Origin: a virus
DNA length: 64,000 nucleotides
Direction: 5' to 3' (one strand)
Virus record (IMG/VR): IMGVR_UViG_3300028833_000003
The notes under the pieces: generated by a model
Seen by the model: only the letters and a program-made list of their open reading frames with translations
Told to the model about the DNA's origin: nothing
Database searches by the model: none
Shown here: positions 1 to 31,082 of the stretch, in pieces
Numbering within the stretch: the stretch's first letter is position 1
Layout of the letters: every line of letters starts with the position of its first letter
Made by a program: the position numbers and the translations under genes

Positions 1-1299
1 TATTGTTGCCGCGCCATTAGCAGGAACAAAAGAACATAATTTAGTAAATAATTTACTGTAATGACCAGTTAAAACATCATAAAATTTTCTATTAGCCCAA
101 AATTTATATGATACTTCTGGTCCGCCGCAAATAGGTGTTATACGATATTCATTATAAATCTATTCTAAAGTACGTGTTTTTGCATATTTGGCTTTAAATT
201 GTAGCCAAGCCTAAATGATATTATCACGTACTTCATCACTTACTCCTTCTGTTGTGACCATAGCAAGCATATCTGGATAAGCTAAGTCTCTCGTTAATTT
301 TTTCCAATCAAACACTTTAGTATTTAATGATTCCCATTTAGAAGTTAAATTTGTAATAAAATTATTAATGCTAGCATACTAATGTGCAGCATTTTTAATT
401 GTATGTAATGTGCCATTTTCTAAATAGTTATAATCAGCATTATCATCTATATTCGTTGTATCAGAAAATTTTGCATATTCTTGTTGATAGTATGCGGATA
501 ATCTAGCATTATCTTCCTATAACCAAGCAATACATTGCTCGCGAGTGTTTTCTGTATAAGCCGGATCGGCTTCAATTGCACGTCCAACTTGCGCGACCAA
601 TATTTGTAATTCTGATAACGTATAATATGGTGCATGATTCTAACTCAAATTATTAACAGCATTAGTTAAAGCAGCATATTCGTGGTGTATGCAATCATAA
701 ATCGTATTCACATTATCAAAAGCGATAAAATTATTCATACGCTATTGAATAATAGCAATTTTTTCTTCACGCATAGTTTCGATTATACGAGTACATTCAT
801 ATGGAGTTATACCCCATACATATTCTTTATCTTGATTCTACTCATAACGATGCTATTTTTTTAATTCAATATCTTCTTCTGCGTTGCCTAAAGCCGCTAA
901 ATCAGCAATATAAACAGGAACACAACCAGTTAATAAGCTATATAAATCTTCAACCTCAAGCGCAGCAACCTAAACGAAATCATCAAAAGGCCATTTAAAA
1001 TTATACGCCGCACTGCTACCTGTCATTAAACGACTTACAATGCGTTTCTAATTGTCCCAATTATTCTATGGAACTAAAACTTGTACCTATTCGCCCGCGA
1101 AAAATGACTATTCTGAGTATGCTTCAAAACGAGTATTTTCATATTCACAAGTGTAAATATTTTTATCCTCTTCCGAACGCGAAATGATAGTACAAGGCGA
1201 ATAAGTTTTATCAAATTTTAAATCACTTAATGCTTTTTTAGTCAATAAATCAACTGCACTTAAAACGCCATTTGCAACACTATCATTAAAATTAGCCAT
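1..1299 (-). CDS. tail structural protein encoded directly downstream of the tape measure gene (possibly distal tail protein); C-terminus runs off the left edge; uses TAG as sense codon
   Basis: ATG 1299 behind AAGGAG; frame open to position 1 (433 codons) with 13 in-frame TAG and no TAA/TGA in AT-rich DNA; position after tape measure. Confidence 0.7.
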
Positions 1300-1341
1300 A
1301 TCTTCACACTCCTTTTACTCTATAACTCTATAACATAATGT

Positions 1342-1375
1342 AAAAAGGGCCGGATTCTTTAATAGAATCCGGCCC
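1342..1375 (-). terminator. intrinsic terminator after the tape measure gene
   Basis: 11-bp stem GGGCCGGATTC/GAATCCGGCCC (1347-1375) followed on the minus strand by a U-run (AAAAA 1342-1346 on plus), 8 nt after TAA 1383-1385. Confidence 0.7.
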
Positions 1376-1382
1376 TATATTT

Positions 1383-4300
1383 TTATCTATAATTATTAAT
1401 ATATTGTGACGCACGATTATTAAGTTCATCAAACGCCGCAATAATTTCGTTTCTATCAGTTGCATTCGGGAACTCAGCGGAAATATGAACATTCTATTCT
1501 AGCCCGCCTAGACCAGAGAAAATGCTAGCACCATTGGCTGAAACTCCACTACTTGACATAGCGGCAGCCAAACCACCAATAAATCCTAACAAATTTTGAA
1601 CAGCAGATGTATCAATAGAATGTAACAGATCAATCGTATTTAGCAAATTAGGCGTGTCTGCCGCATTAAGCATAAGCTCTGGTTTATTTGGTGTGCCATC
1701 AACCCAAGCAGGTCCAGTATAATCAACCAAACCGCCAGAAGCATACCCACTTAATTTTGAATTATATCTCATTGCAGCAGCCTTTGCCGCTTCAATTTTT
1801 GATTGCCAATCACTTGAAACCTTTTTACTTTTAGTAGATGATACTGTTGTACCGTTAGAACTAGCAACCGTACCATCAGTATAACCAACCATATTATTTT
1901 GTACTGGTACTAAACGATATTGAATAAAACCAGTAGCATTAGGTGTTGCAATGTCTCCTTCGGTACCACCAATCTGCCATAATAATTCTAAATTTTTTGT
2001 ATTTGCTGCTTCAATAGTAGCAAAAATATCTGAAATAACTTGTTTTTGTCTATACCAAGCATCAGTCACTGCATCAACTTTAGCCGCTTCATCGCCCAAT
2101 TCCTCATTTAAAAGACTGACTTGCGATGCAGCTAATGATGTAGTAGAACCAATGATTTCATCAAAATTGGTCATGTCTGCTAACCCAGTACGATAAAGAG
2201 ATGTATCTAAAGCATCACTGAATTCTTTTAATTTAGGTAATAACCAATCAATCTATTCTGCTAAACTCATTGCCATACTATCTTGTAATTCAATAGCAGC
2301 TTGAATAGTAGGATTGATACCTTCTGTTGGGTCTTTAAAAGCACTATAATAAGCATCGCTATATGCATCCATACAAGCTTCATTATTAGTGGTTAAATTA
2401 GCATATGCTTCTTTCATTTGATCGACAAAATATTTATCGTCTTGTTGAGCCATTTCATGTAATTCACGTAATTTTGCTGCTTTTTCTTCTTCATTCAATA
2501 AATCATCAAGAGCAATAGCTTTCGCCTATTCCACATACCATTTGCGCTTTTCTAACATTTGTTCTTCTAATTCCCGCACTCTGTCTAATGATAATTCATT
2601 AATTTCAATTAATACATCATTATATTCCTGCGTTGCTTCATCAACTTTTTCTTGGTCTGCAGTATATTGATACATATAATTACCATTTTCATCTCTTGTT
2701 AATCGTACAGTATCTTTTGCGTTCTATGCATCACGTAACGCTGTCTGTTTTTCTAATAGTTCATACTATTTTTGCATCATATCAACATCATATTGAGTTA
2801 ATTGACCACTTTTAGCTTTTTGATTAATAACATTCTATAGCTCTTCATATTGATTCTTTAAAGCCTTATCCATAGTATCTGCCATCGCTTGTTCAATTTG
2901 TCTATTTAATTTATTAATATTATATAACTAATGAGCTGTATTTAAATATCTATCTTGTACTTCAATGTCACGATCATATTTACCTTGTAAGTAATCTAAT
3001 GTCGTTTCTCCCATCGCCAATGCTCTATCTAATTCAGTGCCCATTTCTTCAACATCGGCTTCCCAACGTTGTCTAGCTAAATCCGCCATACTTGTTAAAT
3101 TTTCATAATAAGTATTTTGTGTATCTTTTAAGCGAGCTAATAAACTATAATAATCTGCCTATTGCTGTGCGTCTAAATTTTCTAGACCATCAGCTTCAAT
3201 AATTTTTTGATCAAATAATTCTTTTTGAGCTAAAACAGTTTCATATACATCTTTATAAATATTTGCCAATGCCTAAGTTTGATTATATTGTTCTGTCAAA
3301 TTTGCTCTTGTTGTTGTAAATGTTTTATGAACTCCTATTAAATCACTAATATCTTTAATAGTCTATAAAGCAGTAATATTCTTATCTAATAAATCAGTAT
3401 TTCTTGATAATTCGTCATCGTATTTAGACCACATATCTTCAAATAATTCCTATATTTCTTGACCTTTATCAAAGATGTCTGACATATCATCATTTAAAGC
3501 TTCCATAATATCCTATGAATGTTCTGCCATAGTTGCACCATCAATTTCGCCTGCTTTAAATGCTTGCTATAATTCATTTAATTTAGTCATTTCTTCATTA
3601 AGTTTAATAAAACTCGCACCATCTAAATTTACTCCATCACTACCAAATAGTGCCTCTGCTATTAAACTTGCTCTTGTGCTAAGATTAGTTAATATATCTT
3701 CGGTACGATCAAGTTGCCCTTCTAATGCATTTAATTCTAAATCTGCTAATTCAATTTTCCATTCGTGCGCAGTTTCTACGGTTTCAGCAGTTTTTTCAGA
3801 AATTTCATGTTGCTATTCAAGAATTTTTTCTTGATATTCTTCTATTTGAGCTAATGAATCTTCATAATCTTCAATGACTTTCAACATACGTTGATAGGCA
3901 TCATCAGGTCCTTCCATCCCGCTTTCTGCTTCATCATCTTTATGTTCATTATACCAATCTATTAATTTTTCCTAAAGAGCTTCCCAATTTTTAATAGTTC
4001 CATCTTCATCAAAATCAAGAGTAATACCAAGCTATGCTGCTAAGCCTTCAACATTTGATCTATCTTTGCTAGCATATGCCGCAGCTTCATTTAATCGTTC
4101 TTGATAATTGTCCATTTGTTTATTTAATTTTTCAATTTCTTCACGCATCAATTTAACTTTAGTTACACCAAATGCCATTTCTTCTTTTTTAGCGACCTAG
4201 CCTAATTTGGAATCATATCGTTTAATTGTTTCATCAACTTCATGGTAGCGTTTAAGATCGGCTTTGGATTTACCTTTCTTCTTCTTTTTGCCTCCACCGC

Positions 4301-7300
4301 CGCCGCCTCCGCCGCCACCACCAGGTGCAGAAGGTGCTCCGGCGCCAGGTCTTGCTCCAGTAGTACCAAAATCTGGTACGGCAAGACTAGTTGTACCTGA
4401 ACCTTGTAATTGACCTTCAGCAGTAGCAGTCATAGAGCCGCCACCTGGCATAGTAACTGTCATTGTTGAAGATGCAGGTACATCAATTTCGTTTTCTCCT
4501 GTAACTGTCTTTAAACTAGGAGGAGGAGGAGCTTGTACAGTATATGTGATTGTGCCATCTTGATTTAATACTGCGGTTATAGCATCTGCATTTTGAATTA
4601 AGTATTCTACAGGTATCTATACAGCCTAGCCTGTTTGTTCGCTTAAAGTTGCACTTAACTAATCTGCTAAACCTTGCATATCAGTTCCCATCATTGCCGC
4701 AGCGCCTTGGGCATTTGTTGCTACATACTAAAAACCATCACCAACTTGCTAAACTGCAAGTCCCATATCATTTAATACTTCATTTGCTTCATCTAAGTTA
4801 TCAAACTAACTAACAAATTCTTCAGCAGTTTGTTGAGTTTTTTCTCCCCACTTTGAAGCTAGACCCATTGTATCCATTAACTATCGCATTTGTTTATTGG
4901 TTAAGTTTAAATCTTTTTGCAATTGTCGTAATGCTTTGCTATCTTCTTTTCCAAGTTTTTCACCAAATTTTAACCCGTTACCAATTTTGTTAAATTCTGC
5001 TAACTGTTCTGTACAATCTTCTATAGATTGACCTGTTTCTTGGAACATCTCATCTAATTGTTTAGTTAAAATTTTTGCTTCTAACTATTCCATTGCTTCA
5101 ACAGAACCATTAGCCCATTGTGAAATTAAATCTTTATTGTCTTTGATAAAATCCATGCCAACTTCTGCATCTTTAAAGAAATTATTAACTATATCTACTA
5201 AATCTTGATAAGCTGCCATTTGTTCTTTAATAGATTTTGTTTGATCATCAATAGTAGCTAAAGACCCATTTTCTTCTCTAGCTTTTTGTAATGCATCTAA
5301 TGCTTCTGTCGCTTTATTATATTCAACAGCTGCTTCAGACATTAATAACTTGTCATCAGCTTCTAAATCTTGCCATTCAAGCATTACTCCTTCATAAGCT
5401 GCAATACTTTCAACATAATTTTCCATTTCTTGTGCTTCAATACCAAGCTATTGCGCATAATTAGATAATAAATCTGTTAATGCTTGTACATCACCATGTA
5501 ATGCCGCAGTCACTTTGTCTCCTGCAAATGCTTCATTAGCTAAATCTGTACCCAATTCTACTTCATCAGTATTAAATAAAATTGGATGTTCTAATAGATA
5601 TTGATCTACAGCTTCTTGTTGTGCTTGCTGAATTGCAGCAGCTCTTTTATTCATATATGCAAGTTCACTTTTTGTAACTGCATTACCATTATCATCTAAA
5701 AGTAATAAATCAGGTTTATTCGGGTTACTTATTGGTTTAGGATTAGTTTTATCAAATTCTGCACCTGCTTGTCTTGCTGCATCTGCTTGTATTCTTGCGA
5801 TTTGGTCCATCTAGGCCTAATTTACTGCAGTATAACCCTTTTCCTAAAATTGCTTTAATTCCTCTGCGCTATTAGCGTAATCCTAGTTTTTAACAGTAAC
5901 TTTTCCAGTCTTTTGATCAATTTCAAAACTACTTGCAGTACCATCTTGTAACATTTTCATTGCTGCCATAATCTGTGCCGCTGCAGCAGCCATAGCGGCG
6001 GCTAACTGCATGGTTGCACTTTCCAATTGCACTAAACCGATAGAAGCAACTGTGGCATCTTCACCAACAATTCCCATGTCCTATAAAGTTTTTAGTACCG
6101 CTGCCTAATCTGCTTCTGACATACCTGCGAGAGTGCCTTTTTCAATCATTTGCTATTGAGCAGTCTATAATAATGTCATTTTTTGCTATTGACTATCTAT
6201 ATATTGCTCACCTTCTTGTCGAGCTTTGTCAGCCATATTAGTTCGTTTGGTTTCTACTTCTGTAAATGCTGCCGCTAAGATTTCAGCCAATTCAGAATCA
6301 GAATGTACATACATTGAGTCTTTTATCAAAGATAATACCGCCTCGAAATCCTCTTGTTTAAGTGTATAACCTTGCGCAGCTTCACTAACATGATAATTAC
6401 CAGTCTAATCTGCAAAAACAAGACCATGACGTTCTAATCCTGCCAAAATTGCTATACTATTTGCGTCTCCGGCTTTAGCTTTATCATTATATTCCCCAAT
6501 TAATTTAGGATTTAATGATTTTCCAATAACATCACGCAATTCACCGGCTAAATATTTATCTACATATTTTCTAACATTTTCATTATATTGATCTTTTGTA
6601 GTATCTAAATATTCACCATTTTCACTATTTAAAAATCTTTGTCGCCCTGATTTATTATAAGTATCAAAATCAAATGGTCTATAATCAACTCTTGCATCAG
6701 GATTGTTTATATGTTCTTTAATTTCTTGTAATGTTTTACCTGCTTCTAATAATGTTTGCACATATGCTGCTAATTCATCAGGACTACCGAACATTGATTC
6801 TAAGATACTTTTTCCTTCTGCTAATCCTGCTCTCATATCAGCAATTGCTTGGAATGTTTGCTCCCATAATTCTAGTACTGCTTGTGCAGTAGCTTGTTCC
6901 TAAGCATATATCGCCTGTAAACCACTTGCCCATACATCTTTAATAGTATTCCATGCTTCTTCAACGGCAAATTCAATTTCCGTTCCGCTATGATTTAAAG
7001 CTTGTTGTACGGCAGCTATAAATTCTTCGTTATGATTATTAATTGCATCTGCTAAATCTGTTGCTCCAACTGTAGCAATTGCAGAATTAACTGCAGCGTC
7101 TATATAAGATTTTTGAGCATCAGACAATTTATCACTTTGAGCATATTCTTTATTACGATAATAATCTTTTTCACGTTCAGCAATTGCTTTTTGCATTTCT
7201 TCATTGAAGTTCTCATTCATTTTTACCAAAGCATCAGCCCGAGCTTGTGCAATATCTTTTGGACGTTTAGAATCTTTTTCTGCCTACGCTTTTAATGCTT

Positions 7301-10300
7301 TTAAAGCTGATTGATATTCATGTTCAAATTCTGCTGTCCATTCTCTTCCAGGCATTTCTTGTGAAACCAATTGTTTTGCTTTTTGTTGCAATTTTTGTTC
7401 TTCATCTTTCCATTTAGCTTCTGCATCATCTTGAACTTTTTGTTCATAAGCCTTCCAAATTTCCTAATCAGTTAATTTATCTTTATTATCTGGATTGGCA
7501 ATATAATTATCTCTAAAAGCTGCGTAATCATATAATGTACTATACTTTTGATGATCCGCATCAGTACCACCTAACAAGCTATCTAAAACATCTGTAATAG
7601 ATGTATCTTCAGAAATTTTTCCAATAGCATTTTGAATTTCATCTAAAATACTTCGTGCAATTTTATCTCCTAAACCATCAACATTTGGCTCCCAACCAGC
7701 AATAGACTATGACAAACCAACTTGTAGACCTTGGATTAAGAATGGAGCCAAAGCCATAGTTAGTTTTGATGGTGATGCAATACCAAGAGCATGAGCAAAT
7801 GCTGCAATAATTTCATTACCAATTGGCGCAAAATACGCTGCCCAATCTACATCTGTATTTTGTAATCCAACAATTAAGCCATCCATTAAATGCATAGCTA
7901 ATGACGCCGTTGCGGAATCAGAAGATTGAGATGCTTCATCTAATGCTCTAAAATAATTATTTAAAACATCAGGTGCCAAATCTTTAAAATCATCTGGAGA
8001 CATGGCTAAAATTTTATTATACATAAGTTGAGCCTTATATTTTTGTTCATTTGACCAAGTATTATGGCTACCTTCAGCATTAAATTCGAACATAGCACTT
8101 TGTATATCTTGTATACTCTATAAATTATTATGTCGCTATCTAAAGTTTGTCACATGCTATTTTTCATTATTAGCAATAAATGGTATATCAATTCCACCTA
8201 AATAAGAATACATTTTATCAAGATCTTCTGCGCCCTTTTGCTATAAATTGCTTTTATCCATCAAAGCTTTAACTTTAACAAAATATTCTTGTCCTTGTAA
8301 CTGTTGTTGAATAGTGTTATTTCCAAGACTCGCATCAGCTTTAACATGATATTCATTTGGTTTATCTTCTGCTCCATCAATTGCTCCCTATAATTCTGCA
8401 GCTAAAGTTACTTCTGTACCATTTGCTAATCTTACTTTAATTTCTTTGCCTTTTCCATCTGCTCCTTGTAATATTTGAGAAATTTGCGATTCAATAATAC
8501 CAACATCTGTTTGAATTTTTAGTTTTCGTGGTTGACCATTTTCATCTGTTTCCATTTCCCATGCGCTTATTTTAGATGCTAAATTAAATTCTTCGCCTTT
8601 ATCATCAACGCAATTAATTTTAATATTATGACCAGTTGCATCAGTTTCATAACTTTTAATCGTTGCCGCAAAATCTTCGTCATCTTTTCGAATTAAAATA
8701 GTTTTAGTGCCTGGAAGCATTAAAGCTGCGACCGTTACCGTAAAACCTAATGTATTACCTGCATTAATTGCAATTTTCTTTTCCTCTGGAACACTATCTA
8801 ATAAAGTAGTATAAGTTACTTCAAAAGTGCCATTTTCGCCATCAAACATAATAGTTTTATGGTCTGTAGTAATTGCTGTATTATATTTTGCAGTATAAGT
8901 ACCAAATTCACCTTGGAAAGTAATAGTTTTATCTTCTCCTGCAATTGCTGTATCATATGTTGCAGTATAGGTACCAAATTCACCTTGGAAAGTAATAGTT
9001 TTATTTTCTGTAGCGGTTGCTTCTTTAACTGCAAAAGTATAAGTGCCACCATCACCTAAAAACGTAATCGTTTTATTCTCATTCATTATAGCTTCTTTTA
9101 CTGTATCTGTATAAGTTCCAAATTCGCCCTAAAATATAATTGTTTTATTGTCATCTAAAGTTGCAGATGTATAAGCCGCCTAATAAGTTCCATCTTTAGC
9201 ATAAAAAACAATATTCTTTTCTCCATCAATCTGTACAGCTTCTAATGAAGAAGTATATTCACTACCTGTTTCACCAACAAATGTAATTATTTTTGAACCA
9301 GGATGACTTTCAATAGCAGCAATTGTATCACTGTATTCTTTATCATCAACAGAAAAAGTTACTTGTCCATCAGGATGTAAATTAAAATTCTCAACTGCCT
9401 AAACTACTTCTTTACCATCAACGGTATAATAAACTTGACCATCTTGATAAAGCCAAGTCTAAATTTCATCTTCATTTTCCATCTCGGCTTCAACTTCAAT
9501 TACACTATGGTCAACTGGAGTTGTATCTAATTCTGTTACTAATCCAACATATTCTTGTTGCCGTTTTTCTAAAGTACTTAATTGCATTAATGCTGCTTCT
9601 GTTGCGGCTACCATGCCAGCCTTAATTTGCTCTTTATCTCCATCAGCATTTTGAATATCTTCAATAATTTCTTTAACTCTTTCAGCTGCAACACCAGCTC
9701 TAATTAAAGATTGTTCTAATTCACCAATTGAAGAAAAAGATAAATTATCTAATGAAGTTAAATTTGATTGAATGAACTAAATCGCACTTTTAGCCGCGTT
9801 AATTTTTTCATCGTCCTAACTAGTTTGACTATCAACTCGAGACTATATTTGTTCCATACGCTAGTCATTTAATGCACGCTCTTGAGCTTCGATTTTTCTC
9901 TACTAAATTTGAACCTGAGTATCATCATATCCTTTTTCATCGCGCATGTTCTATAATTCTTCTAGCTTTTGTTTCATTTGTTCCAATCTATATGTTTCTC
10001 GTTCTAGATCAGACATTCCTAGCCATTCCTCAAATGAGGGAGTATCAGCCTTATTTAAGCCCAATAATAATTGATTCATTGCTAATTCAGTATCTTTCCA
10101 TTTTGTCGGGTCTAATTCTGCACCAGATAACCATTCTAACTATTGCGATTTACCAGACGCAGTTTCAATAAATTTAGTTGCAGTTTGTAACGCCGTAGTA
10201 ATATTAGTATATTCTGCTTCTTCATCACTTAAACTTGTTAATAATCCTCTAAAATCACTATTGTTATTTACTGTACCTTTATAAGATATACCCCAATCAT

Positions 10301-20388: not shown

Positions 20389-20644
20389 CTAACTAATTCG
20401 CTAAATCAGTTAATAGTGAAATTGCACTAAAAACTGTTTTGCGATATATCATAAAATCGGCTTCGTCAAGCAGACCATACAATTCAGTAACAAATACTAA
20501 AAAGTCTAATTCACCGCCAAATATTTTGTCTAACCCACGAAGTTCAAGTAATACAGTTTTAATCTATCCTTGCCAATCCTCTTGATTTTCACGCATCGGC
20601 AATAATTTCCAAATCTGATTGACCAGACGACGCAAATCGGTCAC
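20372..20644 (-). CDS. small hypothetical protein (90 aa), one TAG
   Basis: GTG 20644 after AGGTG; fills the gap between flanking genes; overlaps the next start by 17 nt; weak support. Confidence 0.4.
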
Positions 20645-20669
20645 TACAACACCTGGTTCAAATTTGAAC

Positions 20670-21251
20670 TCAGTTGTTTCTGATTGCTTCCCACTTGCCA
20701 TAATCAATACCATTATCGCTATCTGCGTCGCCAGATCCTTCATGAATAATCTTAACAGTACCAGCTAATGCAGCTTCTTCTTGCTTTGGAATAGCACTAT
20801 CATTAAGCATATGCCAATTAGACATAACATGTCCAGTTTCTGGTACAATTTTACGCCGCTTATATAAACGTTGTGCGTGAATATTCTCGCGCCACACCTC
20901 AGTCTTTAAATTTAAAAGCTTCGCAAGATGATTAGCTTGCGAAGTAAATTTAAAATCTGAACCGCTATATTTCATGCGTGTATTTTCAATAGAAGAAATC
21001 TGTCGGTCCAACCATACGACTTTCATTAAAATAGCGAAAATATTAATTTCTTCTCTGGTTAAATCAACATTGTATTGCTCTTGATCTGCGTCATAATCAT
21101 ATAGAGCAAATCTTGGAAATTCAAAGTAGGATATGGCATCTAATAGAATCTATTTACAATCACGAATAGTATCTTCCTCAGTCAATTCCAAATACTAATC
21201 ATCTGTAATTTTACCAAGGAAGGCATTATAAATAGTTTCAAATGATGTCAT
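20670..21251 (-). CDS. head-tail connector/adaptor-like protein (193 aa), contains TAG sense codons
   Basis: ATG 21251 behind GGGGGAG; fragment 20670..21026 extends upstream through two TAGs; N-terminus MTSFETIYNAFLGKITDD resembles gp6-type adaptor N-termini (recall only); ends TGA 20670. Confidence 0.6.
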
Positions 21252-21252
21252 A

Positions 21253-21852
21253 TTACTCCCCCTTTGCCTCTTCTTTCTGCACTACTTTATACTGAGGAGT
21301 AGTGCGGCGACCACTAGTTTTAGTTTCGGCCTATACTCTACGGGTAGGTGCAGCCTTTACTTCCATACCACTATCAGTAGTATTTGCTTCTTCAGCCTGC
21401 GCAGCTTCAACTTCTGCCTTATGCTGCAAAGCAAGCGTTATATCAAAACCAGTCTTTGCTTTAAGAGCTTCGCGCTTACGCGCATCATTGCAAGGCAATT
21501 CATAAGAATATTTCTTGATTAAATCTATTACACCATCAGGCGCAAAATCAAGGCAATCAAGGAATGCTTCAACGCTACCATTTTGAATTAAATCAATAAC
21601 GCCTTTTTCATCCAAATAATATTCAGGTTCAATCCGAATAGGCATTTCCTTCACTACTTCTGTATCTTCAATAAATAGACTATCACGAAGCATTACAGTA
21701 CCACCTGGAACAAAACTTAAAGCATCCAACTCTTCACGAGTAAGATTTTTTACTTCGCCAGGCTACCATTCGCGGCGAATGCCCATATCTGGAATCGTAT
21801 AAATAAGCATTCTACTACTGCGATTACGCACTTTAATTTTATTGTCTGCCAT
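21253..21852 (-). CDS. hypothetical head-associated protein (199 aa), contains TAG sense codons
   Basis: ATG 21852 behind AAGGAG; in-frame TAG at 21763 and 21331; ends TAA 21253 inside the RBS of the next gene. Confidence 0.65.
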
Positions 21853-21918: not shown

Positions 21919-22974
21919 TTAATCGCCCGTTTCATTTGCAGAACGTGTAACATTCAATTGACCTTTAAGAGCATCGTCGATATATACGCAGATGTCTGGA
22001 GTCATAACAACACCAACGCCTACTTTCTTATAGACCTGAATTTCACGGCTGCGATCCTTATTGACATATTCATCAACAATAGTGCTACCTTCCATAACAA
22101 CCTTGGCAGGCTTTACAGCACCTGGAAGAATATAGCAATAACCTGGGTCAATAACCTTTGTCTGATGAGTTGCATCAGTGAAGCCCTGTGGAAGAATAGT
22201 AATAGGATGATTCTTATAAGAAGCAAAACGACCATTATTCCAAATAGTATCCTTCATATTGTCAGAATACATAGCAGCATTAGCAGGACGAATCTTAGAA
22301 GCAAATTCTTCAGTGCAATAAATGGTAGGAGTACCATAAGCTGCAGCGATAGAAATTAAACGATCAAATGCTGCTTCATCCCAACCAGTAACTTCAGCAG
22401 TATTAAGAGCTGGAAGCTGATTCAAACCAGTCTTCAAAGCCTGACCGATTTCCCAATAAATGAGTTCGTCAAGACCTTCCATAACAATACGAGTTACCTC
22501 AGCAAAATCAGCACGACCATCAAGGAACTCTTCCAAACCAATCTGAGCGGCACCGCCGATAGCACTGGTCTGTACTTCGATAGGCGTATCTTTACCAAGC
22601 TTAAATACTTCGTAAATACCAGCCAAACCGACCTTGGTGATGAACTGCTTTGCACGCTGACGATCATGCCAACGCATAAAGATAGCCTTGTCACCCTGAG
22701 CCATGGTCTTTACTTCGGCAAACTTGCCATATTCCTGCTCAACTTTACGAGGAAGAACATCATCCATGGTCTGTTCGATTAATTCAAAGATAGTATTCTT
22801 ATTTTCACGATAAAGAGCAAAAGTGCCTGCATACTCATTGAGTTCTTTACGAAGGGTCTCATTGAGTGCATCATAGGTGAGATTCTCACCATTAAATGAA
22901 TATGCAACAGGAGCAGAGCGATCGGCCTTAGCTGTTGCCTTCATCAATTGAAGAAGTTCTTTCTTATCCAACAT
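21919..22974 (-). CDS. major capsid protein (351 aa), TAG-free
   Basis: ATG 22974 9 nt after GGAG; GC-richer codon usage; size and position after portal/protease-scaffold; followed by hairpin; ends TAA. Confidence 0.6.
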   Translation of the reverse strand: MLDKKELLQLMKATAKADRSAPVAYSFNGENLTYDALNETLRKELNEYAGTFALYRENKNTIFELIEQTMDDVLPRKVEQEYGKFAEVKTMAQGDKAIFMRWHDRQRAKQFITKVGLAGIYEVFKLGKDTPIEVQTSAIGGAAQIGLEEFLDGRADFAEVTRIVMEGLDELIYWEIGQALKTGLNQLPALNTAEVTGWDEAAFDRLISIAAAYGTPTIYCTEEFASKIRPANAAMYSDNMKDTIWNNGRFASYKNHPITILPQGFTDATHQTKVIDPGYCYILPGAVKPAKVVMEGSTIVDEYVNKDRSREIQVYKKVGVGVVMTPDICVYIDDALKGQLNVTRSANETGD

Positions 22975-22994
22975 TGTCAATCTCTCCTTTCCTA

Positions 22995-23744
22995 TTACTG
23001 AAGTCTCATAATTTTAACAGCTGGTTGCATATCGCCAAGATTATAAACCTTAACTACCTGCCATACCATACCAGCAGGAAGAGCAGGAGCATTTTCACCA
23101 CTAGGAGCGGTAACCTTAACAAGATAACCATCTTCGCCTGGGGCCAAAAGATCACCACGAGCTAAAGAACCTGGATCTGCTTTAATGCAGTTAGTAGTAA
23201 AAATATCACCCTCATGAGTCTTAAAGAGACGAGGTACCATAATACCCTGGGTATCAGTAAAGAGCTGTGGCTGATTTAATACTTCAACTTCATACTTGTT
23301 ACCAATAGCAAAATGATTACGACCAAAATCTTCACCAGGATAGGTTTCGGTATGTCCATCTGGATAAATCTCACTATTAGCACCAATAGTCTTCATCAAA
23401 GGATTAAGATCAACATTATTAGCACCGGTTACACCAACTGGGCTATAAACAGAGCCGGTATAGTCACGACGGATCATTGCGAAGTCCTGATCGGTTTCGC
23501 CCTTGGCATAAACCTTTACTTCGTTATAAACTAACATCCACTCGCCCTTGCCGGTAAAATTGACTACATTATTAGCATAGTCATACTTTGCAAACTGACC
23601 ATTCTCAAGAATCTTAATATTCTTAGCTGCTGGCAACTGTGCATAAATCTCGCCAGTGCGCTGTGCAGACAAATGGTTAGGTTCAACCTGACCGAAGCCA
23701 TAAGTTACATAAGTGGCTACCGGTGAAAGTCTTTTAAAAGCCAT
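22995..23744 (-). CDS. capsid-associated protein (decoration or second head component), 249 aa, TAG-free
   Basis: ATG 23744 behind AAGGAGGAAG; between scaffold/protease and capsid genes; beta-rich sequence; ends TAA. Confidence 0.55.
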   Translation of the reverse strand: MAFKRLSPVATYVTYGFGQVEPNHLSAQRTGEIYAQLPAAKNIKILENGQFAKYDYANNVVNFTGKGEWMLVYNEVKVYAKGETDQDFAMIRRDYTGSVYSPVGVTGANNVDLNPLMKTIGANSEIYPDGHTETYPGEDFGRNHFAIGNKYEVEVLNQPQLFTDTQGIMVPRLFKTHEGDIFTTNCIKADPGSLARGDLLAPGEDGYLVKVTAPSGENAPALPAGMVWQVVKVYNLGDMQPAVKIMRLQ

Positions 23745-23765
23745 TGTAGCTTCCTCCTTTATTTA

Positions 23766-25103
23766 TTACATATTTTTGGCGGTTTCGCGCACGGCCTTAA
23801 TCCAGGCAGGAGCGTTATCTGACTCGCCCGTTTCATCTAAATTGAAAGTGAAGTCTTTTTCAGGCTTCTTTTCAGTATCAAGGTCGAAACTTACCTTGTT
23901 ACGAACACAAAGAATACATAATTTAGCTTCAATATCGTCCAAAGAATATTCATCAATCTTTGAAACTACATCAGCCTTATCGGCATCTGTAAGCATATAG
24001 AAACTATCAATCATGTCTTGCTTAGCCTTGCGATCGGCATCAGCCTTGAACTTGCGCAATGGCTCAAGTTCAGCAGTAAGAGAATTTACCTGCTCTTGAA
24101 GAGAAGCGAACTGTGATTGAAGATCCTTGTAAAGTTCAGACTCAGTAATCTCTTCATCAGAAAGAGAATGCTTGGTCTTTTTCTTCTTTTTATCTTCGTC
24201 TTCATCATCTTCTGGTTCAGACTTGTCATCCTCACCATCGCCTTTATCAGATGCGGGCTTGTCTTCTTCCTTCTTCTTTTCATCAGAAGGATCTTCGCCT
24301 TTATCTTCTGGCTTGTCCTCGTTTTCTTCCTCGTCCTTGGGCTTCTTCTTAAATTCAGTATCATCGTCCAAGGGGAGGTTCTCTTCAACAGGAGGATTTA
24401 ATTTTTCATTCTCATTGTCCATGTGAGCATTTCCTCCTTTTTCCAGCATTGCTTTAATTTCCCCGACCATAGCATACATTGTCTGCTTAAAGTCATCATC
24501 TAGGGAGAATGTTGCAGCAATTCCGGCGCCTTCAAAGCAAGGTTCGCAATCCTCACCGAGAATGCAAAGTTTGGAAATTACTGCCTCATTGATTATAAAA
24601 AATTCAGGCCATCCATTATCGTCAAATGACCAATCTCCGTTAGTAAGACTTTCATCTAACTCCATTGATTGATTATTCCCATTTGTTAAAATACGCTTAG
24701 ATTCTGGATATGCCCCAGTCCAAATCCACCCTTCGGTCATTAGATACTCATGATCTACGCCATCATCAGTGAATGTTTGAAACCATACTTTTGCGTTCAT
24801 ATCTACAAATCCATAAGGACGTGTAGTATCAACAATTCTTATGCCATCGCCACGAATTTCTAAGTTCTTATTATGCTGCTCAAAATCATCTTTGTTTTCA
24901 TTATAAAAACCAACGATTGGGCAGCCCGGCAAAGACTTAGCCATTTCAGTCGCAACAGCCTTGGTGATAACACTACCATTGCGGTTAGGTTCATCACCCA
25001 CATAACATACTTTAATTTCACAATGTGAAATTAAAGGATTAACGGGAGTAAAATTCAATAATGAAATTGTATTTTCCCGCGGTATGCTTATATGACGAGC
25101 CAT
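23766..25103 (-). CDS. prohead protease/scaffold-type fusion protein (445 aa), TAG-free
   Basis: ATG 25103 behind AAGGAGGGAG. The N-terminal ~200 aa globular domain resembles XkdF-type phage proteins (recall). It is followed by a long D/E/K-rich linker and a coiled-coil C-terminus typical of scaffolds. Sits directly after portal. Confidence 0.55.
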   Translation of the reverse strand: MARHISIPRENTISLLNFTPVNPLISHCEIKVCYVGDEPNRNGSVITKAVATEMAKSLPGCPIVGFYNENKDDFEQHNKNLEIRGDGIRIVDTTRPYGFVDMNAKVWFQTFTDDGVDHEYLMTEGWIWTGAYPESKRILTNGNNQSMELDESLTNGDWSFDDNGWPEFFIINEAVISKLCILGEDCEPCFEGAGIAATFSLDDDFKQTMYAMVGEIKAMLEKGGNAHMDNENEKLNPPVEENLPLDDDTEFKKKPKDEEENEDKPEDKGEDPSDEKKKEEDKPASDKGDGEDDKSEPEDDEDEDKKKKKTKHSLSDEEITESELYKDLQSQFASLQEQVNSLTAELEPLRKFKADADRKAKQDMIDSFYMLTDADKADVVSKIDEYSLDDIEAKLCILCVRNKVSFDLDTEKKPEKDFTFNLDETGESDNAPAWIKAVRETAKNM

Positions 25104-25115: not shown

Positions 25116-26717
25116 TTAACCTTGTGAATTCTTATTAGCGATAGTTTTATCTGATTTTTCACTATCAGCTTTTTCTGGTCGCCCACCTGTATTACTATCA
25201 GATTTGGCCGTTTTACTCTAACTTACTTCGCCCGCAGTTTTACCACTAGAACCAACTGCTTTACCAGACATAGTAGAAGACATCATTGGCGGTATCATAA
25301 TATCAGACAAATGAAGTATCTCATTCTCGAAATGAGCAGTAGCTAAAATAGAACTCTGCCGTTGTCCCATAGCAACAAGAGGTAACATTTTAGAATAACC
25401 AATCTGCACTAATTCTTTATAGAATTTCGCAACTTCTTGGTAATTATAAATGGTAGTTTCTAACATATAGCTGCGGAAACTATACCGTTTATTTGGGGGA
25501 CACTTTTTAGTTATCATTTTATTAAGGAAGGCTTCATACTGTAACAATAAGTTACGCATAGTGGCTTCATCGTTTAAAATAGATGATTGCAAAGCGATGT
25601 TTCCATCACTATTGAATAAATTTTGTGAAACACCAAATTCATTATAGACTTGTCTCTCAATCTTCTCCAAACCATCCGCCGCGGCAGCAGTGCTATTTGA
25701 GTCAGCCATATCTGCAACATCAACGTCCGCAAAGGTAGTTAATACATCAACACCGACCGCACGTTTTAACATACTAACTGCATTATTATGAATATCACGT
25801 GCTTCATCAACGTCGAATATTAAATCACCATTTTTATCAAGAGGCAATTTCTAAATCAATACTTTTAATAACTATTGCATGGTCTTACGACGGTCTAAAT
25901 CCTGCGCCTAGTCTAAATCAATTAATGTAGGAATAGAATTAACCAAAATTGGCATATCCGACCCATTTAAATTAAATTTAAACGCGGCAGCTGTATCCAA
26001 CAAATACCAACCTTCACTATCACCAATGCCATCGCCCATTAGCTTATGCCGCTTATATAATAAATATCCTTCTTGGAAATCTTCTGGGAACATTTTCAAA
26101 ATCTTCATACGATAAACCGCATCAGGAAATTTATCATCAAAGAAGCGCATATTAAATTCAATAGCCGGCATCCCAGCTTTAAAATAGCGACTGCGGCAAT
26201 AATCAGTTGGTAGCTCTTGAATTGTCATACAGTCTTTGGTATCAACCCAATAACCATAATAACAACCATCTCGAATAACCTTTAATGCAATATCGCCAAA
26301 TACTTTTTTGAGATTAGAATTATCTAAATAAGTAAGTATTCGCGCAAATTCTGTCAGCACTTTATCTTCTTTTAATTTATCATCTTCGATAATATATGGC
26401 GTAACATAATAATCATAACGATAAAGGAAGGCGAAGTATTTACATAAACGTTCATAAATACCAGATATATCATAGAAATATTGTGATACTAAACGTTGAG
26501 TTGCATAATCTTTTTGCGCGAGTGCTTTTAAAATAAAATTCTTATCTGCATAAGTACGATTGTTTTTCTTTAATGAGCCAAGGTCCAATATAGCATCTTC
26601 CAAATTTTGTAAGCCGACTTTAATTTTACGGAAGTCTATACTGTCATAATGAGGTGCGACAACTGGCTCAGACATAGAAAATCCTTTGGCTTTAATTTCA
26701 TCCTAATTTCTTGGCAA
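25116..26717 (-). CDS. portal protein (about 533 aa), contains TAG sense codons
   Basis: Fragments 25908..26675 and 25218..25847 are in the same frame, joined by TAG-only gaps; TTG 26717 lies 8 nt after GGAGG (alternative ATG 26675); ends TAA 25116; size and position after terminase. Confidence 0.7.
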
Positions 26718-26730
26718 TCATCTCACCTCC

Positions 26731-27087
26731 TTAGTATCCAGCTTTTTTCATAATATAATCATAACTTAACAAATGTTCTTCTGTATAAGGAATTTCTATT
26801 AATTTATATCCATTCAAAGCACAAAAACGTCGTTTTAAATTATCATTATACTACTGTTGGAAAAATCCTTTTTTACCACCATATTTGGCAGAAGGCTAAT
26901 AATGCTATTTTCCTTGATACTCTATTAAAAAATCTATTTCTCCATCATCATCAAATACACAAAAATCAAATTTTAATGGTCTTCCACTTGTACTTACTAA
27001 TCCTGCAAATTGCTGCTCCATAGTAAAATTAGCATCAGCTGCTTCTAGGATTTCGCGGATAGTAATTTCTCCTCTACTTGCATTCAT
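26731..27087 (-). CDS. small PD-(D/E)XK-type endonuclease-like protein (118 aa), contains TAG sense codons
   Basis: ATG 27087; three in-frame TAG; read as Gln gives FDFCVFDDDGEIDFLIEYQGKQHYQPSAKYGG...LIEIPY, a pattern I recall from small endonuclease-like proteins; ends TAA 26731. Confidence 0.55.
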
Positions 27088-27091
27088 ATCT

Positions 27092-28828
27092 TTAACTCCC
27101 CTCAGTAAAAAACATCATATCACTAAGTCGCCCACGCTTACGTTTTTTACTATCCTCTTCCTACTTAATGTAGTATAATCCGTATTCAAATGCTGAAAAC
27201 TTATCCTTGCGGATAGTATTATTTGCACGCTTTAAAATGATATTAACACCTTCATTTTCTTCGCGCAAATTCATCATTTCTTCTTTCAATATGGAAGTCA
27301 AAGTAAATGGTTTAAGATATTCTGCCCTTTCTTCGGGTTTCATCTCTTGTCCGCGTTTTGTTCCCATTAATTTATTTTTAGCAGCTCGCTCACTAATTAA
27401 CATTTTTACACGCCCTGATGATAACTGAGTTTGTGCATTTGCGTGAGCCTCAGTGTTAATAGGCGCATTTGCTTTAATTAAATAAAGTGCATCATACTCG
27501 CAATTATTAGTTTGATACTTTTTATAATAATTATCTTCATCATTATAAACACCAAAATCTGGGTATGTATCATTTGTGTCTGGATCTACTTGACCTTTAA
27601 TCATATAATCGACTAGACCAATACCCAAACCGTTAGCATCAATTACTATACGCTTAGCTTTAAATTTATAATATAATTTCTTTAAATAAATTGCCTAATC
27701 TTCAAAGTGTTCATCTGACATTGTAAAAATATTTACTAATGTTTTAATAGATGCGCCAGCACTTTGCGGCGTTACTTTAAATACACAAACAACAGAATCA
27801 CAACCTTTGCGGCCAACATCAACAGAGAGTACATAATATGCTGTACTACGAGAACGTCCAGAATACTCATACTCTGGCTAATTTAATTTACGATTACGTT
27901 CAAATTGTTCGCTATTGAAGAAAGCATCTTCAACTGTGCCAGACCATTTAGACTCATACTCTCTATCAAAAGATGACTCATTAAATGTACCATCCATTTT
28001 TAAGTCTTTAATAAATGACTTAGAAAGCAAGCCCATGATAACTGGGATGCGCCAGGTTCCGCCCATAATAAATGCTTTATCTGGGTCGATAATCTATTGT
28101 ACCAATAGCGTCATCAACTTATCGTAAGCAAATGTATTCTTCCATCCTGCTGTTGTAATATATAATTGTGATTTATTTAAAGTTTCCTCTTCGCGCACCT
28201 CGCCGCTAGCGCAACGTCGCGCAACGTTCATTGTAGGAATTATAACTTCGTTTAAGATTGTACCATCAACACCAACGCACTCTTCAACAACACCGGCATG
28301 ACGACGCTTACCACGCGAGGTATCTCTTGCCGCAATATTGTCAAACCAAGAGCCATTGTAAAAAACGTATTTACAGTAGTCTTTGCCTTCCATTGTTTTT
28401 CCTCGGCGGAAATCAATTTCGTGCGCGAAAGCTGGTATTAATGTACAAATTTCAGAAACTTTTTCTTTCATAATGCCGCTGGCCTGCTCTTTACCGCCAG
28501 AGGTAACGAATAAATGCGCACCTGGGTACAAGATACAACGAATAATAAGTATCATAACGGCTAAGAATGATTTAGAATAAGCACGAGGGAATACTGCATA
28601 CACGTATTTTTTACGCATCGCCGCACGCATGAACACTCTTTGGTAATAAAATAACTAAAAATTATTAGGATTACCAAATTGTAGCATAAAATCTACAAAT
28701 AAATCTGGGTATTCACGCCAAAAAGCAACATATTGGCGCGCGATGGGTATAATAGCCCTTACGCGCTCCTCAGATAATCCTATTTTATTTAAATCATTGC
28801 GCAAATTGAGTAAATCACTTAATGCCAT
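27092..28828 (-). CDS. terL: terminase large subunit (578 aa), contains TAG sense codons
   Basis: ATG 28828 behind GAGGTGG. Fragments 28094..28636, 27878..28066 and 27161..27628 are in one frame, joined by TAG. ATPase part (PRAYSKSF..., ITTAGWKN) is followed by an RNaseH-like nuclease part (YVLSVDVGRKG, IVIDANGLGIGLVD). Ends TAA 27092. Confidence 0.85.
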
Positions 28829-28839
28829 TAGACCACCTC

Positions 28840-30009
28840 TTATTCATCTGTAAGAGATTGCATCCACTCTGCATCCTCTTCCTCTTGTTCTTCAAGGAAG
28901 TCGAAGTGATTTTCAAAATCTTCGTCCTTTAATTCTTCCAAATCTTCAATATCAAGTTCTTCATCGTCATCATCATCAGTCGTTAAGTCGGCTTCATTAG
29001 CATTAGATTTCTAAATTTCAATAATAGCCTGCTCAATACGGTCGCCTAAGTGCATCTCTTCGCGCACCAAGGTATCTGTATATTTTTGCATGTCCTTTAA
29101 TGTTTCATCAACGTGGTCTTTTGGACTATCAACATAATATTTTGGAATAAAACCTTCCTGCTCGCAAATACGCACAAGCTCACCGACCGCATTTACATAC
29201 TCGCCATTTTCATTTTTATTTTGCGCAGCAGTAAATTTAGCGGATTTCATTAACATGTCGTAGGTGCGCATTAGCTTTTGGAAGCCTTCAACATCGCCTA
29301 AGTCCAAAAGCTGATGCCCTTTAAGAGAGGTTTTACAAATAAACTTTAATTGGTCGATGTGCGCTGGTGTCTAAATGTCGAACGCTTCCATCATATCAGA
29401 GTAGAATTGTTCTAACTACACCCACTCATGTGGTCGATATGTTTTACCCCATTTAATAGATAGATATTTCTTATCTTCTTCTGTTAAATCATCCTAAAAA
29501 TCATCTGGTGTTAATAAATCAATTGGGGCTGGCGCAGCTTCTTCTTGTTTCGCCTACGGGTTGGCCCACTCAGGCTTCTCAGGCTTAAAATCTTTTTTAA
29601 GTTCATCGTCGATTTGTAATCCATCATAGCCCTATTCTTTCATGGCCGCAATTTTTTGCTATTCCAGTTCGGCCTAAATCCTCTCAGTATCCGCCCAACG
29701 ATAATCCTTAAATTGTTTGAGTTTCATCTTGGACAAATAACGGCCCAAAATTGTAACACCGGTTACTTTATTGCGGTCTTTGCCATATTTTTCTAGTAGT
29801 GAGTTCCACTCTTGCGGGATATATGGAACGTCGCATTCTTCTAATATCCATAAGTAAGTCTATGGATCCCAGTTATCAACATGTCGTGTAATACACTTTT
29901 TACACTCAAAAAGCTTACCATCTTTCGGGTATTTATCTAAACGGTATGATTGATAAAACTAATTGCCGTCCATGGTGCGGCCGCACGTTTTGCAATAATA
30001 ATCTGCCAT
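28840..30009 (-). CDS. packaging-associated protein, possibly terminase small subunit (389 aa), contains TAG sense codons
   Basis: ATG 30009; N-terminal CxxC...CxxC zinc ribbon and very acidic C-terminus; 13 in-frame TAG, no TAA/TGA; ends TAA 28840, 11 nt before the terL start. Confidence 0.55.
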
Positions 30010-30011
30010 AA

Positions 30012-31082
30012 TTAAGTCGCCTTCTTTCGGTTCTTAGCGTTGCGGCACTCCTTGCAGATAGAATACCATCCATCTTTTGAAGTGTTATTTACCGAAAAAT
30101 AACGTTGATGTGCTAACTTAATTTGCCCACAGCGACTACACCGCTTCCACTTGCCCTTTTCCACGAACGTATAGTGCCACATCAAAAATTCATCTTGGGC
30201 GTATTGCGCGATGAGTTTAGGGATTTTATTGCGCCATAAAGACGAGATATATTCAACTGAGTGGGTGGTGCCGAATTCTTTTTCTAGTTGCGCCTTAATT
30301 TCTTCATTGGAGAAGTAAGACATTTTACATTCAGCGATGCGGCGATACATAGGAAATTTATCAAGAGCCGCCGCATAATAGCGGTCGAAATCCTAGATGG
30401 TCGCCCACAGGTCAGTTTGCATATGATCCCAAACTTTATCTTTAATTTTGTGATAGTTGCACATAATTGCGGAAATAACTTTGTAGTCACATAAAGAAAT
30501 ACCGCTCCAGCGCACCCCTTTTGTCTAAGGGTCAATCCACTCATCAAAGGGCAGCGTAATTGGGAACCGAGTGCCACTATTCACATTCGTAAATTTAATG
30601 GGCGTCTTGTATGCGTTTTTGATTAAATACTAATCTTTCCGCATCTCGATCAATGTGCGCTTAATGATGTAAGCGTCACGCCCAGTTGCGACTTTCTACT
30701 TGGCTTCCCAGCGCTTTATTCCTTCTCTAAGTTCGCGCAAGAACGGTATTGTATCTACGTCTTCCTGAGTTATCATTACTTTTGGTTGAAAAATTACATT
30801 TTTATTATTTTCTACTAATAAATTATATACACCATCTTCGCCGTTCTCAAATTGCCCGACCAACCCCTCAAATGAGGTTTCGCGTTTAGTTATAGTTGCC
30901 ATGCGGTTCTCGGTGAGGAGGCGGCGCTATTTGCGTTCTTCTTTTTCCATACAGAGAACTAGGTAATCGGCCAATGCTTCAAGATACTGCGGAGTTGGGT
31001 CTTCCACTTCGGAGAGTATCTATTCAACTAATTTTAAACGCTCTTCTGGAGCTTCAATAGTATAGTCTAATTTTGTTGCCAT
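30012..31082 (-). CDS. first gene of the late operon: putative DNA-binding protein with HTH-like segment and C-terminal zinc ribbon (356 aa), contains TAG sense codons
   Basis: ATG 31082 8 nt after AAGGAG. Fragments 30696..30902 and 30012..30350 are in the same frame, joined by TAGs. C-terminus reads CSRCGQ...CKEC. Product speculative (regulator or small terminase). Confidence 0.6.

Follow-up and report, generated by a model that had tools for sequence, protein, structure and literature searches.

The window analysed here, a stretch of 64,000 nucleotides (nt) from the IMG/VR virus record IMGVR_UViG_3300028833_000003 with a G+C content of 38.5%, is about 64 kb of a siphovirus-type phage genome of about 169 kb that is related to SPbeta and to the gut phage phAss-1; it corresponds approximately to the reverse complement of positions 6,534-70,533 of a 168,974-bp ENA contig. 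The source is a large tailed phage of gut or rumen type. Our subject is the codon TAG in its late operon, a structural module of SPbeta type that we delimited as 19 back-to-back minus-strand genes within positions 1-31,097. The strongly negative GC skew across 1-31,000 points to minus-strand genes there, and the first-pass annotation of this DNA, made from the sequence alone, had to be corrected as to the strand on which the late genes sit. In these genes TAG is a sense codon, and comparison with relatives argues that it means glutamine (Gln).

When TAA and TGA are taken as the only stops, an unbroken row of long minus-strand frames fills positions 1-31,097, and no comparable row is obtained when TGA or TAA is taken as sense instead. 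The share of the minus strand that lies in open reading frames (ORFs) of 100 codons or more is 39.8% with the standard code; it rises to 94.6% if TAG is sense and to 41.7% if TGA is, a comparison of codes that bears out the first-pass claim. The 10,192 in-frame codons of the 19 genes include 178 TAG and neither TAA nor TGA, where composition would predict 362 TAA and 224 TGA (about 586); the chance of such an absence is about 10^-262, and in the two off-frames of these genes TAA occurs 856 times and TGA 840 times. TAG is present in 15 of the 19 genes: the tape measure gene, the gene at 1..1299 and 13 more, the number of 'other late genes' that had been counted. Two spot counts were reproduced exactly: 15 TAG between 2499 and 4199, and 13 TAG with no TAA or TGA in the 433 codons of 1..1299. 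The 18 complete late genes all end in TAA (16) or TGA (2), as had been proposed. The accompanying claim of a GGAG-type ribosome-binding site (RBS) before every gene held less generally, a GGAG/GAGG core being clear at at least 13 of 19 starts and the remaining starts being weak or overlapping the upstream gene.

The longest of these frames runs from 15062 to 1383 and contains 4,560 codons with 103 TAG, no TGA and a single TAA, its terminator. The first-pass annotation had correctly recognized a single frame broken by TAG only, and its start at 14153 has to be replaced: the most likely start is GTG 15041 behind an AGGAG RBS, which gives a tape measure protein of 4,552 amino acids (aa) at 1383..15041, while the collection's gene call begins at ATG 14909 (4,508 aa). 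Pfam family PF10145 (PhageMin_Tail) matches residues 186-394 (E=1e-26), the only match of the late proteins to Pfam or PDB sequences in a search whose Pfam set lacked the Yon/Yom models; matches to six PHROG tape-measure families begin at residue 7-12, that to phrog_4211 extending across 12-2791. The protein is about 1,400 aa longer than the tape measures of phAss-1 and its relatives. By the rule of thumb of about 1.5 Å of tail length per residue, it predicts a tail near 0.7 µm. It also contains about 2.5 copies of a 72-nt (24-aa) repeat unit at 8849-9077 (TITFQGEFGTYT...) and a Gly11-Lys5 run.

The operon begins with a sigma-factor-like gene (30012..31082, 356 aa, 6 TAG) with a C-terminal zinc-ribbon/HNH-like tail, whose residues 30-349 match phrog_5767 'sigma factor' (E=1.9e-47), followed by a YonG_N-family gene (28840..30009, 389 aa, 10 TAG; phrog_3314 over residues 5-327 and precomputed Pfam YonG_N). 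The large terminase gene (TerL; 27092..28828, 578 aa) is assigned to the SPbeta YonF type by homology to cultured phages: residues 18-574 align in one piece with the 'terminase large subunit' of Enterococcus phage H1 (47.8% identity), the terminase of Geobacillus virus E3 matches likewise, and further matches are to 'protein YonF' of Brevibacillus phage Sundance and Bacillus SPbeta-like phages. Walker A (PRAYSKS) and Walker B (VVEE) motifs are visible, and searches of Pfam and PDB sequences gave no hit. Its five TAG codons (58, 245, 317, 378 and 556) cut it under the standard code into six pieces, three of them long; the earlier proposal of three fragments that join into one protein was thus right about the joining and not about the number. 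A 178-aa terminase fragment in public data (P0361, from a 168,960-bp JGI/IMG contig) is the same gene called with the standard code, a mis-annotation caused by the recoding. Directly downstream of the intact TerL gene lies an HNH/homing-endonuclease-like gene (26731..27087, 118 aa, 3 TAG; phrog_9084, phrog_559). In Enterococcus phage EF1 (MF001358) an HNH homing endonuclease lies inside the terminase gene, and the terminase is also interrupted in L039, L041, L042, L075 and other relatives.

The portal gene (25116..26675, 519 aa, 4 TAG) matches phrog_2739 over residues 44-518 (E=3.4e-89). It is followed by three head genes with no TAG in 1,045 codons (within 21919..25103): a YonD_N prohead-protease/scaffold-like gene (23766..25103; precomputed Pfam YonD_N), whose N-terminal half matches the 'prohead protease' of Bacillus phages; a gene call for a 249-aa head protein (22995..23744); and a YonB-family gene (21919..22974; precomputed Pfam YonB) that, from its position and size, probably encodes the major capsid protein. 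Four small genes of the head-completion/connector region, with PHROG matches of no known function, come next: 21253..21852 (2 TAG), 20670..21251 (g21251, 2 TAG), 20372..20713 (2 TAG) and 19423..20388 (g20388, 3 TAG). The tail genes then comprise YomW-family (18872..19405, 6 TAG) and YomV-family (18117..18875, 9 TAG) members recognized by precomputed Pfam; the TAG-free tail tube gene YomU_Tube (17017..18099, 360 aa; precomputed Pfam), which matches a 'virion structural protein' of Enterococcus phages; two gene calls of the tail-assembly region, one of 413 aa (15703..16944, 8 TAG) and one YomO-like (15116..15640, 2 TAG); the tape measure gene; and the 5' part of a further tail gene (1..1299), which starts at ATG 1299 behind a GGAG RBS and runs off the window.

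The precomputed Pfam assignments YonG_N, YonD_N, YonB, YomW, YomV_2nd, YomU_Tube and YomO occur in this order as an SPbeta-like module. Among cultured phages the closest are large siphoviruses of Bacillota hosts, namely Enterococcus phages H1 and EF1, Geobacillus virus E3, Brevibacillus phage Sundance, Lactococcus phages such as WRP3 and AM1-AM12, and Bacillus phages. The SPbeta-like module, and Blautia as the best cellular match of a PhoH gene that lies beyond the window, suggest a Bacillota host. A megablast search with 14 kb of the late operon found no match among GenBank phage records. Identical proteins recur in independent ENA, JGI and Logan assemblies, the collection proteins P0001/P0363 are 100% identical to our translation with Gln at TAG (so that public calls are already full length), and the lineage is abundant, public data including over 100 TerL clusters at ≥82% identity.

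Homology across TAG sites and the residue specified

For comparison of the late genes we used 80 IMG/VR loci with a portal 51-58% identical to that of the window. In the standard-code loci of this set the orthologues are single unbroken ORFs of equal length. In 23 of 23 standard-code relatives the portal TAG sites are all crossed by one stop-free high-scoring segment pair, all five TerL sites are crossed likewise wherever the relative's TerL is intact, and all 6 sigma-like and all 10 YonG_N sites are crossed in most loci; standard-code relatives of the sigma-like gene are one ORF of 363-411 codons over all 6 TAG sites. A search for homology that stops at TAG therefore came out negative for the portal, TerL and the first two operon genes, and the central first-pass claim, that TAG is sense in the late operon, stands on frames with 178 TAG and no TAA or TGA and on homologues that cross the TAG sites.

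With TAG translated as X, the codons of the 80 relatives were tabulated opposite each window codon. Residues opposite TAG are Gln in 34%, glutamate (Glu) in 15% and lysine (Lys) in 10%, and this order of Gln, Glu and Lys matches the spectrum opposite the window's own CAA and CAG; Gln makes up 40% and 47% opposite CAA and CAG, respectively, and 2-6% opposite the other window codons tested. At individual sites the correspondence can be complete: Gln is found in 80 of 80 relatives at portal codon 275 and in 42 of 42 at codon 151 of the sigma-like gene, and at TerL codon 378 it is found in 71 of 73, the other two having TAG. It is also found in 66 of 71 relatives at TerL codon 317, in 50 of 53 at codon 213 of the YonG_N gene (g30009), and in 76 and 72 of 80 at HNH codons 61 and 79. 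Eleven window TAG sites fall in columns with conservation of 70% or more, 8 of them in Gln columns and none in a Glu column. In a site-normalised likelihood comparison over 52 sites Gln comes first, ahead of Glu by 20.8 and Lys by 27.3 log-likelihood units (lnL).

A closer relative, the 140.5-kb ENA contig L151 (83% mean protein identity to the window), allowed codon swaps to be counted directly. The two genomes have TAG in common at 16 sites; the other 32 window TAG correspond to CAA or CAG 20 times and to GAA or GAG 3 times, and 12 of the 18 TAG of L151 that are not TAG in the window are CAA or CAG there. The first-pass assumption of Gln at TAG thus holds by alignment, likelihood and codon-swap tests, and by this comparative evidence TAG means Gln in the window, which corresponds to genetic code 15.

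Distribution of TAG and the suppressor tRNA

None of the 80 complete window genes ends in TAG (TAA 57, TGA 23). Within the late operon TAG makes up 30% of Gln-type codons (178, with 331 CAA and 76 CAG), and the TAG-using genes favour CAA, the tape measure gene having 230 CAA, 18 CAG and 103 TAG. The four TAG-free late genes (YonD, the 249-aa protein gene, YonB and the tail tube) contain 45 CAA/CAG, of which 35 are CAG and 10 CAA; this preference for CAG is carried by the three other than YonD, which has 4 CAG and 5 CAA. The absence of TAG from the most abundant virion proteins (protease/scaffold, probable capsid and tail tube) suggests that TAG decoding is still costly. The G+C content is raised at 22-24 kb.

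On the plus strand, for which we used the collection's gene calls, 36 small genes at 31186..46458 have no TAG as sense or stop and all end in TAA or TGA, and 19 of the 21 genes at 50423..63048 are TAG-free by codon counts, the remaining two having one TAG (51907..52380) and two TAG (59849..60082). In total, 55 of 57 plus-strand genes lack TAG, and the 57 have 3 TAG versus 217 CAA/CAG. These genes are probably early, and those without TAG read alike under either code. One of their products, a protein of 445 aa, has no relatives in IMG/VR.

The recoding predicted for the late operon is therefore present there and not strictly confined to it. Besides the two plus-strand genes, the PhoH gene beyond the window has 4 TAG, and a cluster of five minus-strand genes (47379..50196; gene calls and codon counts) contains 10 TAG in three genes at 47.4-49.8 kb. 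Seven of these lie within the 201 codons of a gene for a helix-turn-helix (HTH) or sigma-70 region 4-like protein (49233..49838, minus strand; weak Pfam HTH match), which has the highest TAG share of Gln-type codons among window genes and lies on the opposite strand within the early region. Its product is a candidate regulator that would be made only after a code switch.

A tRNA array begins in the window on the plus strand (61459..63571) with 8 tRNAs identified by ARAGORN and Rfam, including tRNA-Gln(CUG) and none with a CUA anticodon. The source contig reaches 6.5 kb beyond the window, with 14 further tRNAs, and ends inside a tRNA-Gly(GCC); its first 20.5 kb (L087) were scanned. A permissive Rfam scan added no suppressor, blastn-short searches of the source contig with known suppressors returned only generic T-arms, other assemblies of the last window gene reach no further into the array, and relatives found in IMG/VR by PhoH showed no tRNA(CUA) in the array parts examined.

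Arrays that run on past this point were found in other contigs. An exact-pattern scan with the truncated tRNA-Gly retrieved JGI contigs with the order Gly(GCC), Met, tRNA(CUA). A 65,964-bp ENA contig found via PhoH (L149), which has the same genes, PhoH and tRNA order as the source contig, is 95.6-99.2% identical to it at the nucleotide level over about 6.7 kb where the two align. Past tRNA-Gly(GCC) it continues with tRNAs for Lys, Phe, His and Cys, a peptidoglycan-binding protein, tRNAs for Trp and Arg and a small receiver-like protein, and then, 2.1 kb past the point where the source contig breaks, a 93-nt tRNA(CUA) (L149 8779-8871), tRNA-Gln(UUG) and a PTH2-type peptidyl-tRNA hydrolase. The same suppressor type occurs at 7777-7866 of L113, which shares a contig with L059 and is the nearest of the large TAG-recoded relatives in IMG/VR; beyond L149 and L113, at least 26 viral contigs carry it. 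It is also seen at L107 2111-2203 and in many of L110-L136. From the synteny with the 96%-identical L149 we infer that the window genome also carries a tRNA(CUA).

These suppressors measure 88-95 nt. Their 1-72 pair is weak, position 73 is G, and both the anticodon arm and an additional hairpin of about 20 nt in the variable region (GATATCCCTCTGAAGGAGGTAGT) are conserved. The acceptor, with its weak 1-72 pair and G73, resembles that of the phages' own tRNA-Gln, and judged by these predicted features the suppressor combines a class-II-like shape with a tRNA-Gln-like body. Four further contigs (L138 ~7730-7830, L141 ~650-740, L143 ~4640-4730 and L145 ~5710-5800) contain the 3' half of the suppressor (AAAACCGT, then the variable arm and T-arm) preceded by non-tRNA sequence and missed by ARAGORN, which suggests copies with an intron in the anticodon loop.

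Several other features were observed in the array. A G+C-rich stretch of about 950 nt without ORFs (window 63572-64000, continuing to ~64,518; L087 13506-14452) had no Rfam match at E≤1 and may be a large structured RNA or a set of tRNA-like elements; orphan T-arm-like motifs (GGGTTCGAATCCC, GGGTTCGACTCCC) were noted for it, at window 63303-63315 and 63653-63670. A JGI contig from another sample (L108, Ga0255061_10004508) is 100% identical to L087 13439-16118 over 2,680 nt and then diverges in tRNA order (Leu, Arg, Tyr, His, Gly, Met): the array is mosaic between strains. Two matches below the Rfam gathering threshold lie beyond the window, one to the cow-rumen-3 RNA (L087 18972-19102; 42 bits against a threshold of 86.7) and one to a YrlA (Y RNA-like) element (L087 19863-19932; 35.7 bits against 69).

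Sister lineages with apparently different codon meanings

Forty-three of the 80 loci use the standard code, 22 are TGA-recoded and 15 TAG-recoded, and the three kinds are interleaved on the portal tree. In the TGA-recoded loci (L007-L012, L018, L021, L022, L026-L028, L030-L034, L046-L048, L052 and L061), TGA stands opposite window tryptophan (Trp) at 163 of 224 sites. Among TAG-recoded lineages, the tests applied to the window also point to Gln in clusters A, B and E, the margin for B being small (2.9 lnL, 17 sites). In clusters C (L035, L036, L056, L062 and L065) and D (L060 and L084), Glu makes up 53-61% of the standard-code residues at TAG sites. The likelihood favours Glu over Gln by 57.6 lnL in cluster C (70 sites) and by 24.7 lnL in cluster D (25 sites), and 26 of 32 and 14 of 15 conserved columns, respectively, are Glu columns. 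Among the members of cluster C, at 76-93% identity, TAG is exchanged with GAA 107 times, with GAG 30, with CAA 10 and with CAG 5 times, and in the TerL of L036 (7754-9484) the second, catalytic glutamate of Walker B (LMEE) is written TAG. The late proteins of these Glu-type sisters are about 45-50% identical to those of the window. No report of TAG read as Glu in phages was found in the literature searched.

A second type of tRNA(CUA), 74-75 nt long with a tRNA-Glu-like D-arm (TCTAGTGGTCTAGGA) and A73, was found in L153 (4918-4991), L154 (9647-9720) and L256; the L153 and L154 copies are followed, about 280 nt downstream, by a PTH2 peptidyl-tRNA hydrolase gene. This tRNA type is a candidate decoder of TAG as Glu. 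It was not linked to contigs of cluster C or D, the contigs of L036 and L060 were not among the matches listed in scans for the anticodon arm and variable arm, and the genes around the L154 copy (7.9 Glu versus 3.0 Gln of 28 TAG sites) are too noisy to count.

We lean slightly towards the view that amber (TAG) has no fixed meaning in this clade, being Gln in the lineage of the window and Glu in sisters, with TGA read as Trp elsewhere. Stop codons would then have been captured repeatedly with different meanings, and the window would be one state of the clade. A possible route leads through the amidation of Glu-tRNA(Gln) in Bacillota, by which the same suppressor could yield Glu or Gln depending on amidation.

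Mechanism, rival explanations and known systems

The explanation that we consider very probable is a recoding of TAG to Gln in which a phage tRNA(CUA), predicted from synteny, gates the late sigma-like, virion and tail genes. An amber suppressor with a tRNA-Gln-like acceptor would be encoded in the plus-strand array about 2 kb past the contig break, would be expressed with or after the TAG-free genes and before or alongside late transcription, and would turn TAG from stop to sense; translation of the late sigma-like factor and of the packaging, virion and tail genes would be gated until this switch. Late in infection, release factor 1 (RF1) would be almost fully outcompeted or disabled. Release factor 2 by itself would suffice for all TAA and TGA terminators. 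The number of ambers in the tape measure gene is relevant here: at 99% decoding per codon 35% of chains would be completed (0.99^103), and at 95% only 0.5% (0.95^103), so that near-total decoding per codon is needed and RF1 must effectively be out of play.

Several observations weigh against this explanation. No tRNA(CUA) was found by ARAGORN or Rfam in the window or the adjoining 6.5 kb (22 tRNAs and one truncated), which we attribute to the break of the source contig inside the array, and the long variable arm of the suppressor in the relatives is atypical of tRNA-Gln. Genes for a release factor, an aminoacyl-tRNA synthetase or another code-switch function were not found in the window, where precomputed Pfam is empty for the plus-strand genes and a scan of the ten largest gave a weak peptidase match. 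The labels early and late derive from strand, gene content and analogy. A few TAG lie where relatives conserve other residues, such as Lys at YomW codon 68 and aspartate at g20388 codon 246. The TAG at 21195-21197 (g21251 codon 19) stands opposite methionine (Met) in 46 of 46 relatives (36 of 36 non-TAG); this may be a plain Gln/Met exchange, and three more ATG-TAG correspondences were seen in comparisons with L151 and L152. Finally, amber can apparently mean Glu in the same clade, and the assignment of Gln is a statistical one.

The last point leads to the rival that comes closest, namely that TAG is sense in the window too but encodes glutamate, as apparently in clusters C and D. Glu is indeed the second-best residue for the window, and HNH codon 64 and sigma codon 230 align mostly with it. 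The likelihoods that favour Glu in the sisters are reversed in the window, however, where Gln is better by 20.8 lnL, conserved TAG columns include no Glu column, swaps with L151 are 20 to CAA/CAG against 3 to GAA/GAG, and the near-identical phage L149 has the Gln-like suppressor type; a Glu reading of the window is accordingly quite improbable. The residue might instead be pyrrolysine, or serine, leucine or tyrosine through charging of the suppressor by another synthetase. ARAGORN labels CUA tRNAs 'Pyl', and the class-II-like variable arm with G73 is also seen in tRNA-Ser. Against this, serine makes up 4% of residues opposite TAG, leucine and tyrosine are outside the seven commonest, all three score below the eight best candidates (down to -38.8 lnL), no pyl genes were seen, and the acceptor features match the phages' own tRNA-Gln, which leaves such a residue scarcely credible.

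Two further explanations deny that TAG is fully sense. If it were still a stop, passed by leaky or programmed read-through with the short fragments as main products, the lack of a suppressor tRNA within the window and of TAG in the most abundant virion proteins would be accounted for. The 103-TAG tape measure, 5-TAG terminase and 4-TAG portal are, however, essential single chains whose homologues are single ORFs; leaky decoding would leave almost no full-length tape measure, TAG terminates no gene, and it occurs at invariant Gln columns. We regard read-through as very unlikely. A decayed, pseudogenised or mis-assembled remnant, with in-frame stops as damage or sequencing errors, would explain why the standard code splits the operon into dozens of short ORFs. 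Damage would have added TAA and TGA as well, and the first-pass argument that decay is ruled out by the absence of TAA is upheld by the count of zero TAA and TGA against about 586 expected; moreover, the identical proteins come from independent assemblies, 16 TAG positions are common to the 83%-identical L151, and RBSs and tight gene spacing are intact. Decay is thus hardly conceivable, and recoding of TAG to Gln is the reading with which we compare published systems below.

Recoding of this kind had been cited in the first-pass annotation as known from gut phages, and it has been described within the same broad group. The closest published genome is phAss-1 (OQ749652; 'Caudoviricetes code 15 clade' at NCBI; proposed 'Phassvirus'), of about 136 kb and with TAG reassigned to Gln (Babkin et al. 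2023, PMC10607447). Like the source of the window, it is a large gut siphovirus-type genome in which TAG codes for Gln in the genes for TerL, portal, tape measure and tail, the tape measure is very long (3,149 aa, against 4,552 aa here) and tRNA genes form a big array; the array of phAss-1 includes a tRNA-Sup-CTA. Its proteins are 40% (portal), 43% (TerL) and 50% (YonB) identical to those of the window, and its suppressor, 74-77 nt by annotation, lacks the long variable arm of the suppressor in the window lineage. The proposed Phassvirus members (phAss-1, BK046881 and BK025033) are 80-86% identical at the nucleotide level (PMC10607447). Membership of the window phage in that genus was considered and rejected, given no nucleotide match and 40-50% protein identity; the two belong to the same broad group only.

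From its genome size, habitat type and mixture of codes, the window phage is probably a member of the 'Agate' phages. These were described from the guts of cattle, pig and giant tortoise, include a TGA-recoded lineage of about 127 kb and mix standard, TGA-recoded and TAG-recoded members; in one standard-code relative, 34 of 146 genes end in TAG (bioRxiv 10.1101/2021.08.26.457843). The same study found recoding concentrated in structural and lysis genes, proposed a code switch from early to late expression, and gave Gln as the best-aligned residue at TAG 'in most cases', with Glu unmentioned (bioRxiv 10.1101/2021.08.26.457843). The relatives of the window show a like mixture, with 43 standard, 22 TGA and 15 TAG loci. 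The TAG-free plus strand, the TAG-free abundant virion proteins and the TAG-rich sigma-like, terminase and tail genes together fit the published code-switch timing. The Agate study, by Borges et al., reportedly appeared later in Nature Microbiology (2022).

Phages of the crAss-like and Lak lineages that use code 15 read TAG as Gln in their late genes and encode their own suppressor tRNAs; metaproteomics has confirmed this in two crAss-like phages (Peters et al. 2022, PMC9523058). These are unrelated lineages with Bacteroidota hosts, and differ from the SPbeta-like module of the window. The suppressor described here can also be likened to a cellular one in having a tRNA-Gln-like body with a CUA anticodon. 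The supE tRNA of E. coli is a tRNA-Gln with a CUA anticodon that inserts Gln at UAG, a weak chromosomal suppressor competing with RF1. Unlike with supE, decoding in the window phage must be near-complete, and the tRNA has an extra hairpin of about 20 nt.

The recoding of the window is therefore an already known phenomenon, published for the same group. Annotation with table 11 shreds the late operon and table 15 is required, and with 103 ambers in one essential gene, amber decoding in late infection must approach 100% efficiency. The wider value may lie in the relatives rather than in the window itself. If TAG does specify Glu in sister lineages, the clade would include a new phage genetic code beside its TAG-to-Gln, TGA-to-Trp and standard-code members; automatic 'code 15' translation would be wrong for part of the public data, and the clade would be a natural system in which to study how the meaning of a codon changes.

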